A stretch of 64,000 nt of DNA from the NCBI GenBank assembly GCA_023898585.1, contig CP060229.1:854587-918586 (forward strand), given 5' to 3'. The DNA comes from Candidatus Nomurabacteria bacterium (lineage in GTDB: Bacteria > Patescibacteriota > Minisyncoccia > Phycocordibacterales > UBA918). Below are positions 6,222 to 43,902 of this stretch, in pieces. Position 1 is the first letter of the stretch; every line of letters starts with the position of its first letter. The position numbers and the translations under genes were made by a program. The notes under the pieces are model-generated. The model was not told where the DNA came from and searched no databases. It worked only from the letters and a program-made list of their open reading frames with translations.

Positions 6222-6254
6222 TAAAAAGCCTCCCTGTTTTTATGCAGGAAGGCT
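6222..6254 (-). terminator. Rho-independent terminator after the 87-aa ORF
   Basis: Stem agcctccctg/caggaaggct (9 of 10 bp) followed on the minus strand by a U-run (A-run 6223-6227 on the plus strand). Confidence 0.45.
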
Positions 6255-22259: not shown

Positions 22260-22357
22260 AAATAATTAAGTGAAGAATTGGTCATAGTCCTCAATGCGTG
22301 GCCAAATTTATAACATATCGGTCGTAATCGGTCAATGTTTTTAGTATAACACATGAT

Positions 22358-22551
22358 TAGAGCATGTCCAAAACCCTACACAAAGGAGTAAATCCTTCTC
22401 TAATATTTTGTTCCGGCTCGTCGGTTTGCAAAATTTGGTCAAAAAACCGCTATGATTTCTTACCGTACATCAGTATGGCTCGAAATTCTATCAATTTTTT
22501 GTCTCAAATTTTGCAAACCTTTGGAGCTCGGAGGGTTTTTGGACATGCTCT
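22358..22551. repeat. Nested inverted-repeat structured element (~190 bp) overlapping the leuS stop codon
   Basis: Outer IR tagagcatgtccaaaaccct (22358-22377) / agggtttttggacatgctcta (22531-22551); inner IR gtttgcaaaatttg (22424-22437) / caaattttgcaaac (22505-22518). No conserved ORF inside. Confidence 0.5.
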
Positions 22552-25339
22552 AAGAAATGATAAGGTTCAGAATTCTGCCTTGTACATAAATAATTTTTGT
22601 AATTTTATGATCTTTTATTCTGTTTGCGAGGGCTTCATTTTCATTGACTGCCTTCAGTGCTTCTTCTTCTGATGCTTCCCCCGAAATAGTTATCTCCCCT
22701 CTCATTTTGCCGTTAATTTGCACTCCGATAGTCACCGCTTCATCTTTAGTAAGGTCTGGGTCGTATGTGGGAAATTTTGCAATATGGATACTGCCTTCAT
22801 TGCCAATTTCGTGCCAAATTTCTTCGGTCAGATGTGGAGCGAAGGGGGCAAGAATCACCAAGAATTTTTTGTAGCTATCCGCAGTGAGACCGGTTTTTTC
22901 CGCCAGATTGACAAAGATCATCATCGCGCTGATGGCGGTATTAAATTTGAATTCTTTGATGTCTTCTGAAACCTTCTTGATTGTTTTATGGAGTTGTCTC
23001 GTCGTTTCATCAGGTTCGGTGTCGCTTATGTGCTCTCTCAAGCCGTTAACTCGTTCGAGAAACCGCCTTGCTCCAACCAGACCATCTTGCGACCAAGCAA
23101 TCGTGTTTTCGAACGGTCCCATGAACATTTCATAAACTCGTAAAGTATCCGCTCCCACCAAATTTACTATTTCATCGGGATTGATGACATTTCCCCATCT
23201 TTTACTCATTTTTCGTCCGTCTTCCGCCAAGATAAAGCCGAGAAATTCCAGTCTCTGGAAGGGTTCCTCTGTACTTACTACCCCGATATCGTAGAGAAAC
23301 TTGTGCCAAAAACGAGCGTAGATAAGGTGTCGTACAGCATGGTCGCCACCAACATAGACGTCAACCGGTGCCCAAAACTTCTCATTTTTCTTACTTACCA
23401 GTTCTTTAGTGTTGTGGGGGTCCATGTAGCGCAAGTAGTACCAGGAAGAACCGGCCCACTGTGGCATGGTATTGGTCTCTCGTCGGCCGGATCCGGCACA
23501 TTTCGGGCACTTTGTATTTACCCAATCCTCTATATTGGCAAGTGGTGATTGCCCGTCGCCTGCCGGCTCGTACTTCTCTACGTCCGGCAACACAACTGGC
23601 AACTCACTATCCGGTACTGGTACAGCGCCACATTTATCACAGTGAATGATCGGAATTGGCTCTCCCCAGTAGCGCTGGCGTGAAAACACCCAATCTTTGA
23701 TCTTGTATGTTTTGGTTAGTCGACCCCCTACCTTTTTGGTGATGGCGATTTTGGCTTCTTTGGAGTTCATGCCGTCAAACTCGTCGGAATTAATCAATTT
23801 ACCTAAAGCTATTGTCGGTTGATCAATCATGCTGTGAGCGAAGTCTTTTAATGAAAAAGCCCATTCATCATCTGGAATTCCTTCCAGGGAATCGAATATT
23901 TCCAATTGACCTTCATGAACTGATAAATTCGAATCGTCGACTTTATCTATGAAGTAAAAAGCATATTCTTCTCTTAAATCAGAACTAGATTTTCTAAGAT
24001 ATACGAGTCTGGGCGCTAGTTTATTTTTTATAATGTCTAATTCCAGTTCCTCATGCAGTTCTCTAGCTAGAGCTTGTTCGGGTGATTCTCCTTTCTCAAC
24101 ATGACCACCAAAAGTGCAAAGTTTATCAGGGCTGGTCGGTGCCCCTGTACGTCGCTGTAACAGGTACTTTCCTTCCCGATTCCTGATAAATGCGCCAGTT
24201 GCCTTTACTCTATTTATAGTTGGTATTTCGGTTATTACGTATCTAATCCCAATCCCAAACTTTTTCGCAAACGCAAAGTCTCGCTCATCATGCGCCGGGA
24301 CAGCCATAATCGCGCCCGTACCGTAGCTTGCGAGCACATAGTCAGCGATATACACCGGAATTGTCTCGCCATTGGCTGGATTGACTGCCGTTATCCCTTC
24401 CAGCTTCACTCCAGTTTTGTCTTTGGTTGCGTCAAGTCGATCCATTTCTTTTTTACCCTCCGCTTCTTTCACGTATGTCTCAACTTCATGCCAATTCAAA
24501 ATAACTTTACTGTATTTCTCTATAAATTCGTGCTCCGGTGCCAAAACCAAGTAAGTAGCTCCGAAAAGGGTGTCCGGACGAGTGGTAAAGACTGTTACTT
24601 TCCCACCAATCGACAATTCAAAGTCAATTTCCGCTCCCTCACTACGCCCGATCCAATTGCGTTGCGCCTCTTTAATATGTTCCGGCCACTCCAGGGTATC
24701 CAAATCTGCAAGCATCCGATCGGCGTACTCCCGGATTTTTAATACCCACTGTCGCATTGGTTTTTGCTCCACTTTACTCTCGCAACGCTCGCAGGTACCG
24801 TCCGCCTCCAGATCCTCATTAGCCAGTCCTGTCTGGCAACCGGGACACCAGTTGATCGGCTCATTGCTTTCGTAAGCCAGACCTTTTTTGAAAAGTTGAA
24901 TAAAAATCCACTGTGTCCATTTGTAATAATTTGGGTCTGTAGTATTGATTTCTCTTTCCCAATCATAGTCAAAGCCCAACACTTCCAACTGCTCTTTAAA
25001 GCGTGCGACGTTTTTCTCGACCGCCACGCGCGGATGGGTTTTGTTTTTGATGGCGAAGTTTTCTGCCGGCAGACCAAAAGCGTCCCAGCCCATCGGGTGT
25101 AGTACTTCGTGTCCGGTCATTCTCATGAAACGGGAGTAAATATCGGTCGCGATATAGCCTTTGGGGTGTCCAACGTGCAGTCCTTCGCCTGACGGATACG
25201 GAAACATGTCCAACACAAATGCTTTCGGTTTGCTGGTGTTTTCGTTAGTTTTATACAGTTTGTTCTCGCGCCAATTTTCGCGCCATTTGCTTTCTATTTG
25301 TTTGTGGTCGAAACGTTTATGCATACAAAATCTAGGCAC
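22550..25339 (-). CDS. leuS: Leucine--tRNA ligase with a NUDIX hydrolase domain inserted in the CP1 editing domain
   Basis: 929 aa; HVGH (LHVGHPKGY), KMSKR, editing-domain motifs TTRPDTLFGATYLVLAPEH and GTGAIMAVPAHDERDFAFAKKFGI, and an anticodon-binding domain. Residues ~376-510 (nt 23810-24214) form a Nudix fold with the Nudix box GGHVEKGESPEQALARELHEELEL. Confidence 0.9.
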   Translation of the reverse strand: MPRFCMHKRFDHKQIESKWRENWRENKLYKTNENTSKPKAFVLDMFPYPSGEGLHVGHPKGYIATDIYSRFMRMTGHEVLHPMGWDAFGLPAENFAIKNKTHPRVAVEKNVARFKEQLEVLGFDYDWEREINTTDPNYYKWTQWIFIQLFKKGLAYESNEPINWCPGCQTGLANEDLEADGTCERCESKVEQKPMRQWVLKIREYADRMLADLDTLEWPEHIKEAQRNWIGRSEGAEIDFELSIGGKVTVFTTRPDTLFGATYLVLAPEHEFIEKYSKVILNWHEVETYVKEAEGKKEMDRLDATKDKTGVKLEGITAVNPANGETIPVYIADYVLASYGTGAIMAVPAHDERDFAFAKKFGIGIRYVITEIPTINRVKATGAFIRNREGKYLLQRRTGAPTSPDKLCTFGGHVEKGESPEQALARELHEELELDIIKNKLAPRLVYLRKSSSDLREEYAFYFIDKVDDSNLSVHEGQLEIFDSLEGIPDDEWAFSLKDFAHSMIDQPTIALGKLINSDEFDGMNSKEAKIAITKKVGGRLTKTYKIKDWVFSRQRYWGEPIPIIHCDKCGAVPVPDSELPVVLPDVEKYEPAGDGQSPLANIEDWVNTKCPKCAGSGRRETNTMPQWAGSSWYYLRYMDPHNTKELVSKKNEKFWAPVDVYVGGDHAVRHLIYARFWHKFLYDIGVVSTEEPFQRLEFLGFILAEDGRKMSKRWGNVINPDEIVNLVGADTLRVYEMFMGPFENTIAWSQDGLVGARRFLERVNGLREHISDTEPDETTRQLHKTIKKVSEDIKEFKFNTAISAMMIFVNLAEKTGLTADSYKKFLVILAPFAPHLTEEIWHEIGNEGSIHIAKFPTYDPDLTKDEAVTIGVQINGKMRGEITISGEASEEEALKAVNENEALANRIKDHKITKIIYVQGRILNLIIS

Positions 25340-26463: not shown

Positions 26464-26666
26464 GGAAGCGCGGCCGAAGTGGCTAAAAATATGTGTGAGA
26501 GACAAGCTGGAGCACGAGGCATATCGGGATATGTTGAGTGCGATGCGTGCGTTTCGTAGCCATATTTTAGCCACGACGACCGGAAATGAATTAGAATAAC
26601 ATTATTTTCATGGTGAGACTTCAGACAGTTTCACCTAGCCGAAGCGCGGCCGAAGGCCGCGCTTCC
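26464..26666. mobile_element. MITE-like palindromic repeat, copy A (inverted relative to copy B), flanked by a 15-bp direct repeat
   Basis: ~160-bp body (26480-26640) whose reverse complement is ~90% identical to 40498-40639. Flanked by the direct repeats gaagcgcggccgaag (26465-26479 and 26641-26655). The right-hand copy is part of a perfect GC hairpin gaagcgcggcc-gaa-ggccgcgcttc, 22 nt downstream of the ychF stop. Internal IR gtggctaaaaatatg / catattttagccac. Confidence 0.55.
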
Positions 26667-26688: not shown

Positions 26689-27789
26689 TTACGAGTGCAT
26701 AAACTCAATCACGTCTCCGTCTTGCACCACGTACTCCCTGCCTTCGGTTCTGAGCTTACCTTGATCGCGAGCAACAGATTTTGACCCACTGGCCACCAAA
26801 TCTTCAAATTTTACCACCTGTGCGCGAATATACTTTGTCTGAAAGTCACTATGAATAACACCTCCCGCTTCCGGTCCAGTACTACCTTCTGGTATTGTCC
26901 AAGCACGCGTTTCTTTTTCGCCGGTCGTGAAATAACTGATCAGACCAAGACTATGGTAAGCGACTCTGATCAGCGATTCGACACCGTTTTCCTGTGCTCC
27001 ATACTCGCGACGAAATTCGTTTTTCTCACTCTCGGAAAAATCTTTTAGCTCGTGTTCCATTCCTGCGTCGACCACTACATACTCAGATCCGGTCTTTTCA
27101 AAAAACTCCACTAATTCGTCCCATCTTGGGTCGCTTTGTTCGTCCAGGTTAAAAGCATCTTGTTTTTTGTTGCAGACATATAAAAACTTCTTCATTGTTA
27201 AAAGATGAAGATCTTTAATCTGTTTTTTCTCATCTTTCGTCATTTCAAAACTATTAGCTAAAGATCCGGCATCCAAATGCACTAGAAGCTTTTCCAGCAA
27301 AGTTTTCTCTGCGATAGCCGGCTTGTCTCCTCGCTTAACCTCCTTCTCCAAGTTATTGACACGCTTTGCTACTGTCTCGGCGTCAGCCATGATAAGTTCC
27401 AGGTTAATAACTTCAATATCTCCCATCGGGTCAACTCCGCCGGAGACATGGTGGATATCACTGTCTTCAAAAATTCTTACCACCTCGGCAATCATGTCGG
27501 TTTCCCGAATATTAGCGAGGAACTTGTTCCCGAGTCCTTCGCCGGCCGAAGCTCCTTTTACCAGTCCTGCAATATCAACAAATTCCACAATGGCCGGGAT
27601 GATGTCTTTAGATTTTGAAATTTCGGCCAAAGTGGTGAGTCTATGGTCGGGTACGGCAACTACCCCAACTGTCGGGTCGATTGTGCAAAACGGATAGTTG
27701 GCCATTTCGACCGAATTTTTCGTGAGTGCATTAAAAAGGGTTGATTTTCCAACATTTGGTAGACCGGCAATTCCGACAGATAGTGACAT
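26689..27789 (-). CDS. ychF: Ribosome-binding ATPase YchF (Obg-family GTPase-like)
   Basis: 366 aa; G1 motif GIAGLPNVGKSTLFNALT, NYPFCTIDPTVG, and a TGS C-terminal domain. Confidence 0.85.
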   Translation of the reverse strand: MSLSVGIAGLPNVGKSTLFNALTKNSVEMANYPFCTIDPTVGVVAVPDHRLTTLAEISKSKDIIPAIVEFVDIAGLVKGASAGEGLGNKFLANIRETDMIAEVVRIFEDSDIHHVSGGVDPMGDIEVINLELIMADAETVAKRVNNLEKEVKRGDKPAIAEKTLLEKLLVHLDAGSLANSFEMTKDEKKQIKDLHLLTMKKFLYVCNKKQDAFNLDEQSDPRWDELVEFFEKTGSEYVVVDAGMEHELKDFSESEKNEFRREYGAQENGVESLIRVAYHSLGLISYFTTGEKETRAWTIPEGSTGPEAGGVIHSDFQTKYIRAQVVKFEDLVASGSKSVARDQGKLRTEGREYVVQDGDVIEFMHS

Positions 27790-27817
27790 GATAATTGTGT
27801 TGTTAATTTAGTTTATT

Positions 27818-27846
27818 AAAAAAGGCCAAGATAAAGGTATCCGGCC
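27818..27846 (-). terminator. Rho-independent terminator between the structured RNA candidate and ychF
   Basis: Minus-strand hairpin ggccggataccttta tcttggcc followed by UUUUUU (plus-strand aaaaaaggccaagataaaggtatccggcc). Confidence 0.5.
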
Positions 27847-27853
27847 TGAAAAT

Positions 27854-27967
27854 GACGTGGGAGGTTATGGAAACACGAATCGATCCCGAGGAGAGTCTGA
27901 GGAGTCGCTCCGCTGGGGAGACGGAGCCAGTTCGTGCCGGGTACTGCTGTGACCCACCTCCCACGTC
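27854..27967 (-). ncRNA. Unclassified GC-rich structured RNA candidate (114 nt) with its own intrinsic terminator
   Basis: Perfect 12-bp closing stem gacgtgggaggt/acctcccacgtc enclosing three internal hairpins (GGGU..ACCC; GCUCCG..CGGAGC; AAUCGAUUCG region). Local GC ~60% against a ~40% background, and the terminator follows immediately on the minus strand. No match to SRP, RNase P or tmRNA core motifs by eye. Confidence 0.3.
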
Positions 27968-28043
27968 AACTACACAATAGCATGATTATTTATTTTGTAA
28001 ATAGATTTATAGGTTCAGGACTTATGCTAGTTGTAAAGCACGA

Positions 28044-28883
28044 TCAAAACGGTAAGAAACCACGATCATACTCACAAAACGATATTTCAGAAGCGTCCAT
28101 TTCAAGGATACTAGCAAATATGTTTATTGCGTCTGATCTGTTTCCGAGTGAGTCAATAAGCCCGGCTTCAATAGCCTTCGCTCCCGGCATGGTTGATCCA
28201 TCTGCCAGAGCTTCGACTGCCGATACTTCCATGTCACGGTACTTGGCGACAATATTCACGAACTCTTTGTGTATTATGTCGAGATCAGCTTGTAATTTTT
28301 CTCTTTCTTCGTCCGTGATGGCGCGGTTTGGGCTGCCAATATCTTTGAATTTACCGGTTGTTAACTGTACGTACGTCAAACCTTCCTCTTCGTTTTTCAG
28401 TGACTCTTCTACGTACGACATATTGACTCCAATACTACCGACGTCTGACATCGGTGAAGCAATGAGAAAATCAGTCGAAGCCGCAACCATGTATCCGCCG
28501 GAAGCCGCGACATCGCCGACAAGACCGACAACCGGCAGACTGCTGTCTCTAAACCTCTCGGCGATACGCTCGGAAGCTACCGGAGTTCCTCCCGGAGAAT
28601 TTATTTCTAATAGCACTCCGTCAATGTCCTCGTCTTCCTCGGCGGTATCCATAAAAGTTTCGACCGCCTCCGGAGTAATAACCAAATCGAATTCAGTCAG
28701 GCCATGAAACGGTAAAATGGTGCCCTCAATTGGCAAAACGGCGATGTTGCAAGTGCCGTCACTGATTCCCGTTTCAACATCGTACAGGGCGGAGATTGAA
28801 ATCAGCACGGCGATAATGGTAAGAACTACAACCGTTGCTCGCATAACCGCTCCGGCCGTTTCTCTGAGGAATGATTTGTGCAT
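28044..28883 (-). CDS. sppA: Signal peptide peptidase SppA (S49 family), membrane-anchored
   Basis: S49 catalytic-Ser region GDVAASGGYMVAASTDFLIASPMSDVGSIGV and a Lys-containing region; N-terminal TM (VVVLTIIAVLISISAL). The probable start is the Met of MHKSFLRE (the ORF track extends to 28988). Confidence 0.75.
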   Translation of the reverse strand: MHKSFLRETAGAVMRATVVVLTIIAVLISISALYDVETGISDGTCNIAVLPIEGTILPFHGLTEFDLVITPEAVETFMDTAEEDEDIDGVLLEINSPGGTPVASERIAERFRDSSLPVVGLVGDVAASGGYMVAASTDFLIASPMSDVGSIGVNMSYVEESLKNEEEGLTYVQLTTGKFKDIGSPNRAITDEEREKLQADLDIIHKEFVNIVAKYRDMEVSAVEALADGSTMPGAKAIEAGLIDSLGNRSDAINIFASILEMDASEISFCEYDRGFLPF

Positions 28884-38287: not shown

Positions 38288-38360
38288 TGGACTGTACAGG
38301 ATTCGAACCTGCGACCTCTTCCATGCCATGGAAGCGCTCTACCAGCTGAGCTAACAGCCC
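38288..38360 (-). tRNA. tRNA-Ala (anticodon GGC)
   Basis: Minus-strand sequence GGGCTGTTAGCTCAGCTGGTAGAGCGCTTCCATGGCATGGAAGAGGTCGCAGGTTCGAATCCTGTACAGTCCA: G3:U70 pair, D-loop AGCTCAGCTGGTAGAGC, anticodon loop AT-GGC-AT, T-loop GGTTCGAATCC; 3' CCA is not encoded (..GTCCA then CAAAA). Confidence 0.85.
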
Positions 38361-40497: not shown

Positions 40498-40740
40498 GAA
40501 ACTGTCTGAAGTCTCACCATGAAAATAATTGTTATTTAAATTCATTTCGGGTCGTCGTGGCTAAAAATATGGCTACGAAAATACGCTTCGCACTCAACAT
40601 ATCCCGATATGCTTCGTGCTCCAGCTTGTTTCTCACCACTAGAGTACTTCCGTCTTCATAGTCGCTAATCTCTCCTTGAAGACTAGGTCGCGCTCATATT
40701 TTTAGCCACTTTGGACTCCGATGAGACTTCAGACAGTTTC
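40498..40740. mobile_element. MITE-like palindromic repeat, copy B (243 bp) with 19-bp terminal inverted repeats
   Basis: TIRs gaaactgtctgaagtctca (40498-40516) / tgagacttcagacagtttc (40722-40740); internal IR gtggctaaaaatatg / catatttttagccac; core is ~90% identical to the reverse complement of 26494-26640. The right TIR overlaps the pgi stop codon by 1 nt. No conserved ORF. Confidence 0.6.
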
Positions 40741-43817: not shown

Positions 43818-43902
43818 TCCTCCGAAGGGTTACCCTTCGCGAAGGGTAACCCTTCGGGATGTAAATTACCCTTCGCGAAGGGTAACCCTTCGGGATGTAA
43901 AT
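43818..43902. repeat. Tandem 36-bp palindromic direct repeats (2.3 copies)
   Basis: Unit tacccttcgcgaagggtaacccttcgggatgtaaat at 43831-43866 and 43867-43902, plus a partial copy at 43818-43830; each unit contains the perfect palindrome acccttcgcgaagggt. Lies between convergent genes. Confidence 0.6.

Follow-up and report, generated by a model that had tools for sequence, protein, structure and literature searches.

C-rich-seed small RNAs (sRNAs) of Gram-positive bacteria, such as RsaE/RoxS (RF01820), 6C (RF01066), and the CcsR/cuckoo type, are about 100 to 150 nucleotides (nt) long and have their own promoter and an intrinsic terminator. The C-rich motifs of RsaE/RoxS pair with G-rich ribosome-binding sites (PMC5419742, PMC6158497). 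Here, we describe an element of the same outline on the minus strand of a 64-kb stretch of contig CP060229.1 from a Candidatus Nomurabacteria bacterium (the whole stretch is called the window below), upstream of the gene ychF. On balance, we favor the prediction that this element is an unannotated, independently transcribed sRNA gene of about 150 nt. Patescibacteria, also known as the Candidate Phyla Radiation (CPR), are tiny-genome, mostly uncultured bacteria in which, to our knowledge, no regulatory sRNAs have been described, and our literature search on sRNAs in CPR/Patescibacteria found nothing relevant.

In design, the element resembles RsaE/RoxS in that its 5' end is paired, its C-rich loops are exposed, and its terminator is strong, and it carries several C-rich motifs of the same type (UCCCC and CUCCUC) that are predicted to be single stranded in its hairpin loops. 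However, it shows no covariance-model similarity to that family, a 5'-3' closing helix surrounds its multibranched core, its host is a CPR bacterium with mostly leaderless genes, and a duplex scan of 49 start regions identified no targets. The kind of RNA is therefore a known one, a terminator-ended C-rich sRNA, while the element itself is in no described family.

Fold and transcription signals of the element

The RNA was numbered from position 27967 of the window, and all of the features given below lie on the minus strand. The core is closed by helix P1, a perfect 12-bp pairing of GACGUGGGAGGU (27956..27967), which bears the Shine-Dalgarno (SD)-like sequence GGGAGGU, with the anti-SD-like ACCUCCCACGUC (27854..27865; RNA positions 1 to 12 with 103 to 114). 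In the DNA, the repeat is one pair longer (27968/27853), so that the arms at 27853-27865 and 27956-27968 form a perfect 13-bp terminal inverted repeat. Within P1, hairpin P2 (GGGUCACAGCAGUACCC, 27939..27955, RNA 13 to 29) is present in both the minimum-energy and the centroid folds and is followed by domain P3 (27872..27938), whose stem GGCACGAA/UUCGUGUU (RNA 30 to 37 with 89 to 96) encloses P4 and P5. Hairpin P4 (GCUCCGU-CUCCCCA-GCGGAGC, 27907..27927, RNA 41 to 61) presents a C-rich apical loop at 27914..27920, and the weak, C/U-rich hairpin P5 (27884..27905, RNA 63 to 84) contains two CUCCUC motifs. The CUCCC of the P4 loop had a mean predicted probability of being unpaired of 0.88, and the corresponding values for the two CUCCUC motifs of P5 were 0.36 and 0.67. 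A linker, AUUUUC (27848..27853), leads from the core to an intrinsic terminator (27818..27847, -11.3 kcal/mol), which consists of a hairpin at 27847..27823 and a U6 tract at 27823..27818. An A/U-rich spacer of 28 nt (27790..27817) then separates the element from ychF (26689..27789, ATG at 27789), which encodes a 366-amino-acid protein with the Pfam domains PF06071 and PF01926; the gene upstream of the element encodes an S49 (SppA-like) peptidase, as identified with Pfam. A first-pass annotation of this stretch had reported a 12-bp closing helix around three hairpins, about 60% G+C in an AT-rich spacer, and a hairpin with a U6 terminator 28 nt before ychF. The three hairpins correspond to P2, P4, and P5 of the minimum-energy fold, with P3 around the latter two, and the coordinates, the identity of ychF, and every other detail of that description that was checkable proved accurate.

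The computed structure signal of the element was strong. The region 27975..27800 (176 nt) folded with RNAfold at -65.3 kcal/mol, compared with -45.3 ± 3.8 kcal/mol for 200 dinucleotide shuffles (z = -5.29), and not one of these shuffles was equally stable; the curated 150-nt unit gave z = -5.8. The plus strand of the region had a z score of -4.2, as expected where helices abound. The minus strand alone has a promoter ahead of the fold and a U-tract after its final hairpin, and we thus assigned the element to that strand. The G+C content of the core was 62.3%, versus 28.9% and 29.7% in the two flanks of the spacer and 43% in the window, and the core was the 100-nt island of highest G+C among all 30 intergenic regions of the window. 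Perfect 12-bp inverted repeats with a loop of 60 to 130 nt were absent from 16 of 20 shuffles; the window has three such loci, and the element is the only G+C-rich one. The element is real, strongly structured, and noncoding, and it occurs as a single copy in the window.

A promoter of the sigma-70/extended -10 type, TTTACA-16-TGcTATTGT, was found at 28001..27974. Its -35 hexamer TTTACA (27996..28001) and its extended -10 box TGcTATTGT (27974..27982) are separated by 16 nt and gave 9 of 12 matches in the promoter scan; the TG is present, and the box fits the lineage motif TGnTAnnnT, which also precedes leaderless genes and the units of relatives described below (in its fuller form, this lineage motif reads TCTGnTAnnnT). 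As a whole, the genome is largely leaderless. Half of the ATG-start genes of the window (20/40) have a TAnnnT box that ends 4 to 9 nt before the ATG, with a sharp peak at 6 nt (11 genes), and an SD-like 4-mer precedes only 6 of the 40 genes. Applying this 6-nt rule to the -10 box places the predicted transcription start at G27967, on which P1 begins, and the RNA so predicted would extend from 27967 to approximately 27818, about 150 nt, with its transcription and exact ends deduced from these signals. At the level of sequence consensus, the element thus appears to have the features of an sRNA gene: a promoter of its own, a Rho-independent terminator of its own, and no coding potential.

The same signals could serve a cis-acting leader or attenuator of ychF. 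Transcripts from the promoter at 28001..27974 would then be mostly terminated, and a regulated or constitutive fraction would read through; the core would sense a ligand, a protein, or the ribosome or would be a mere stabilizing 5' domain. Transcription-terminating riboswitches and attenuators likewise combine a structured domain with an intrinsic terminator directly before a gene, which at this locus has no promoter of its own: within the 28-nt spacer there is no recognizable ychF promoter, no -10 box at the leaderless distance, and no SD sequence, so that ychF differs from about half of the genes of the window. Because no promoter is recognizable there, read-through may supply ychF. However, core and terminator had additive folding energies (-51.6 and -11.3 kcal/mol, respectively), as for independent modules, and no antiterminator was found: when the 3' arm of the terminator was barred from pairing, the core was unchanged and the 5' arm formed no pairing with it. 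Unlike riboswitches and attenuators, the element thus shows no competition between terminator and antiterminator. In addition, P1 is a perfect, G+C-rich helix of 12 bp, which is too stable for a ligand-gated P1. These properties argue against a riboswitch, as does the failure to find a conserved aptamer in approximately 170 ychF loci of relatives, and overall we consider a leader function unlikely.

Family searches, conservation, and coding potential

Rfam 15 (4,227 models) was searched with the whole window at the gathering thresholds and with the region 27700-28100 at E values up to 10. The only match in the whole window was a tRNA at 38288-38360. The regional search returned only RF02278, the Betaproteobacteria toxic small RNA, with 17.1 bits versus a gathering score of 50 (E = 0.52). 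This match spans 27875..27817, that is, the C-rich 3' strand of P1 together with the terminator, and treats the P1 sequence ACCUCCCAC as a loop. Both RNAs have a C-rich stretch followed by a terminator hairpin and a U-run, and the match is a compositional resemblance, not membership. The models of the signal recognition particle (SRP) RNA (RF00169), 6S RNA (RF00013 and its relatives), RNase P, tmRNA, RsaE (RF01820), 6C, and all riboswitches gave no match in the regional search. The first-pass annotation had likewise been unable to place the element with SRP RNA, RNase P, tmRNA, or the riboswitches, and the Rfam search that it proposed yielded no family.

A strongly diverged member of a known family (SRP/4.5S, 6S, RsaE/RoxS, 6C, or the Betaproteobacteria toxic sRNA) was nevertheless considered. 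The core has 114 nt, which is the length of the Escherichia coli 4.5S RNA, the C-rich loops are like those of RsaE and 6C, and the weak RF02278 match covers the C-rich 3' part and the terminator. However, no family reached its gathering score, and none besides RF02278 had an E value below 10; the element lacks the helix-8 motifs of SRP RNA, and the predicted fold is multibranched, unlike the 6S rod with its large central bubble. Moreover, a housekeeping RNA would be expected to be conserved at about 80% YchF identity, where this element is not, and the units of relatives match no common family: searches of 20 relatives' loci at the gathering thresholds and of 14 loci at E values up to 5 gave no consistent match. 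Membership in a known family is therefore very improbable.

By its YchF relatives, which are metagenome-assembled genomes of the Kaiserbacteria/Nomurabacteria type, the window belongs to the Patescibacteria, class Paceibacteria, and the best matches from other species have about 82% YchF identity. The search set comprised approximately 170 ychF loci, including 80 genome loci and 80 metagenome loci for nhmmer and blastn-short, and no sequence homologue of the element was detected by these two programs in the first 80 or in all 160 loci. A metagenome scan found no YchF nearer than about 81% identity. In the protein database, there were one YchF with 98% identity and one exact YchF, both from the same species (loci L161 and L163), and in these contigs the core was identical to that of the window at 114 of 114 positions. 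L161 differed from the window by a tolerated 2-nt deletion in the linker and by a C-to-U change in the terminator loop (27837), the sole substitution; everything else upstream of ychF was identical, including 945 nt of sppA (100%), and ychF itself differed at 26 sites. Because the flanking sppA is also 100% identical, the identity of the core is uninformative about selective constraint. In the relative at 85% YchF identity (L162), the contig was cut off upstream, and relatives at 82 to 83% identity had unrelated units before ychF. Under default filters, a covariance model built from the single core sequence matched none of 100 loci. When the filters were disabled for 18 loci, generic hairpins were all that it returned, and the unit of L100 scored best among the full-length matches (15 bits, E = 0.65). 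As far as sequence and structure comparisons can tell, the element is an orphan carried by same-species contigs only. The only homologues found, the same-species cores, are identical and offer no covariation. The first-pass annotation had held that a lack of conservation or covariation in relatives would speak against the candidate; at the sequence level this lack is formally what we observed, and the positional conservation of analogous units offsets it.

The spacer could instead encode a small protein. There is a 53-amino-acid open reading frame (ORF) with a GTG start at 27964..27803 and a 30-amino-acid GTG ORF within the core, and the SD-like GGGAGGU is located at the 5' end of the RNA. However, AUG does not occur in the core, the SD-like motif, which is itself locked in P1, overlaps or directly adjoins the GUG codons, and the 53-amino-acid ORF passes through the terminator. 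This ORF, the only sizeable one, is frameshifted by the 2-nt deletion in L161 and has no Pfam match, and the source assemblies call no gene in the spacer. On these last three grounds we rejected a coding function, and what probability it retains is close to negligible. A type I toxin mRNA, an idea suggested by the 5'-3' clamp and the sequestered SD-like motif, was also rejected, since a usable start codon is lacking and the peptide that could be made would be hydrophilic.

Units upstream of ychF in related species

When the spacers upstream of ychF were inspected, many species had a unit of the same design but unrelated sequence at the same position. In these units, a promoter of the form TGnTAnnnT, in many cases TCTGCTAnnnT, is followed about 6 nt past its -10 box by a closing helix with at least one hairpin inside, and the units also have C-rich motifs in single strands (often YCCCCAR) and an intrinsic terminator. 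The distance from the extended -10 box to the first paired base was 5 to 7 nt in at least 13 of the 20 curated units, and it was 6 nt in the window and in most of the units. Nineteen curated units had folding z scores between -2.2 and -8.0, and their C-rich motifs were mostly predicted to be unpaired. Among 56 long spacers, CCCCA occurred in 16, versus 6.2 ± 2.3 in shuffles (maximum, 14), and the antisense TGGGG was not enriched (6 observed versus 5.1 expected). The longer motif YCCCCAR was found in 8 of the long spacers, versus 1.7 ± 1.2 in shuffles. In three loci (L021, L023, and L048), the stems vary and the loop CCCCAAG is kept, with 5 of 29 pairs compensatory in RNAalifold, although the three-sequence alignment was imperfect. 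Four units (those of the window, L004a, L164, and L002) have in common a P1 of the SD-like/anti-SD-like GGGAGGU/ACCUCCC type. A crude automated scan for promoter/closed-helix/terminator units with a P1 of at least 9 bp, which covered the window and 694 kb of relatives' loci, returned six units; five of these were located just upstream of ychF, and the other was a false hit that overlapped the start of ychF. Since the units are present with either upstream neighbor, sppA or a flavodoxin-like gene, their association is with ychF. Units of different species or subgroups were not aligned in structural register by MAFFT, and only L021, L023, and L048 were usable; common descent of the units is therefore unproven.

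These units bear on both functions proposed by the first-pass annotation. A stand-alone sRNA with its own terminator is supported by the promoter at 28001..27974, by the predicted start on the first base of P1, and by the recurrence of this layout in at least 13 of the 20 curated units. In many relatives, a separate promoter for ychF, TCTGCTAAGCTA, comes after the unit terminator, about 7 nt ahead of the ATG, and in those species the unit is thus a transcription unit apart from ychF, unlike a leader. As for the riboswitch or attenuator leader, a ligand sensor is not supported, given the absence of a conserved aptamer, the independent folds, and the lack of an Rfam match, whereas the weaker form, a leader that acts through read-through, retains some standing. 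It is favored by the position of the element beside ychF, which is kept in relatives regardless of the upstream gene, and by the different 5' devices that other relatives have before ychF, which suggest that 5'-side regulation of ychF is common. One such device is a conserved leaderless upstream ORF (uORF), MSTTRVFLF(S/F)NS.., of 10 to 15 codons, which is located directly after a promoter and about 55 nt upstream of ychF in L064, L083, L085, and L144. Variants of it are present in L054 and L069, and it is absent from the window; this uORF may encode a leader peptide that controls ychF. A precedent for an sRNA gene that also feeds its neighbor is the ssrS (6S RNA)-ygfA arrangement, in which the sRNA gene is cotranscribed with the downstream protein gene. 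As in that arrangement, the element lies immediately before a conserved protein gene in a position that is kept across the clade, and read-through could feed the downstream mRNA. However, 6S RNA has a conserved structure, a rod with a central bubble, and Rfam recognizes it; neither holds for the element.

Small hydrophobic ORFs were also observed between sppA and ychF in two loci, at approximately 600-720 of L164 (39 amino acids, MIAKTGFKTVFILSLLMLLMLW..) and at approximately 460-570 of L169 (34 amino acids, MTKIIFILVSTVIFFMWIFGG..), both with a strong SD sequence.

The terminal inverted repeat of the element raises the question of a selfish or decaying inverted-repeat element, similar to a miniature inverted-repeat transposable element (MITE) or an insertion remnant, that lies in a permissive spacer and whose promoter and terminator signals are fortuitous or belong to its neighbors. 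The perfect 13-bp repeat, the strong folding, the intergenic position, the G+C content unlike that of the surroundings, and the orphan distribution within one species would all fit such an origin. In addition, the window contains a true dispersed two-copy inverted-repeat element (26471-26582 and 40530-40740) and other nested inverted repeats, and an IS200/IS605 transposase gene is located beside ychF in one relative. However, the element is a single copy with no partial copies in the 64 kb, no flanking target-site duplication or direct repeat is visible, it is absent from the approximately 170 loci of relatives, and two exact-pattern scans of viral contigs did not find it, which speaks against a phage or mobile origin. 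Unlike MITE-like elements, it is G+C rich and has a promoter on one side and a separate terminator on the other, and its inverted repeat starts exactly at the predicted transcription start. Furthermore, other species have the same promoter-helix-terminator design built from unrelated sequences. A mobile origin thus appears improbable, and we continue to favor an sRNA gene.

In the relative with the transposase (L166), the IS200/IS605 Y1 transposase gene at 1-330 adjoins ychF, and its end hairpin, CCCCCAGCGGGAGCTGGGGG, has 12 nt in common with the P4 region of the window. We judged this resemblance (the shared CCCCAGCGG(G)AGC) to be coincidental, since the sequence has a different structural role there. 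The two copies of the dispersed repeat have the terminal inverted repeats GTGGCTAAAAATATG/CATATTTTTAGCCAC, are in opposite orientation, and are about 93% identical over approximately 110 nt, with a 57-nt indel between them. Copy A (26471-26582) is just downstream of ychF, and copy B (40530-40740) is nested in a 25-nt inverted repeat (40492-40516/40722-40746) and folds at z = -5; the pair is either MITE-like or a two-copy structured RNA.

Several other features of the window were observed. Nested inverted repeats lie at 22357-22553, directly past the stop codon of the leucyl-tRNA synthetase gene, with inner arms at 22423-22446/22496-22519 and outer arms at 22357-22376/22534-22553; the inner hairpin has a z score of -8.0 on the minus strand. 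The synthetase itself (22550-25339, minus strand) has a NUDIX hydrolase domain (residues 378 to 478, PF00293, E = 3.7e-15) inserted beside its editing domain. Perfect 28-nt inverted repeats of the 18-nt palindromic unit CCGAAGGGTTACCCTTCG are located at 43822-43893, in an intergenic region of 553 nt. Finally, a strong terminator-like hairpin with an 11-bp stem and a T5 tract (6227-6254, minus strand) lies in a 449-nt intergenic region, about 350 nt past the nearest codirectional stop codon, and may mark another unannotated transcript.

Possible roles of the RNA

If the element is transcribed as predicted, transcription would begin on the first base of the 12-bp helix, and this helix would clamp the 5' end to the segment before the terminator. 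With its 5' end paired, the RNA would be compact and should resist exonucleases, and its body would display C-rich single-stranded motifs, namely, the CUCCCCA loop and the two CUCCUC sequences. By analogy with the RsaE/RoxS, 6C, and CcsR-type sRNAs, these loops would most likely act in trans and pair with G-rich, SD-like sites of the few mRNAs that are not leaderless; alternatively, they may bind a protein. Read-through of the terminator may, in addition, deliver ychF mRNA.

Several observations weigh against an independent sRNA gene with such a function. The scarcity of SD-like 4-mers, which precede 6 of 40 genes, leaves few targets for an SD-targeting RNA, and the duplex scan of the seeds against the 49 start regions of the window performed no better than shuffled seeds. 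No homologue was found outside the same species in the approximately 170 ychF loci, and the only variants, L161 and L163, have identical cores. The catalogue of units was partly curated by eye, and the criteria of the automated scan were tuned on it. Homology of the window RNA to the units of relatives is also unproven, and these may be analogues or may be unrelated.

A broader reading, which we offer as speculation and think improbable, is that Paceibacteria may keep before ychF a positionally conserved and rapidly diverging class of sRNAs whose 5' end is clamped from position +1 and which display YCCCCAR loops. Several of the P1 clamps, including that of the window, mimic an SD:anti-SD duplex (GGGAGGU/ACCUCCC), and such RNAs could regulate or act as decoys of the anti-SD sequence of the ribosome, or of the SD-dependent minority pathway, in a manner coupled to ychF. 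YchF is a ribosome-associated ATPase. In E. coli, it has been connected with the control of leaderless translation (PMC8138138); for the role of the sRNA, this link is a lead and not evidence.

Should the element prove to be no more than a leader or the remnant of an inverted repeat, the finding would be ordinary. A credible sRNA gene, in contrast, provides a concrete locus for metatranscriptome work in these bacteria, and the value of this locus is raised by the recurrence of analogous units before ychF across many species. Another question that it poses is what role C-rich, anti-SD-like sRNAs would have in genomes that are mostly leaderless and why they would be located beside ychF.

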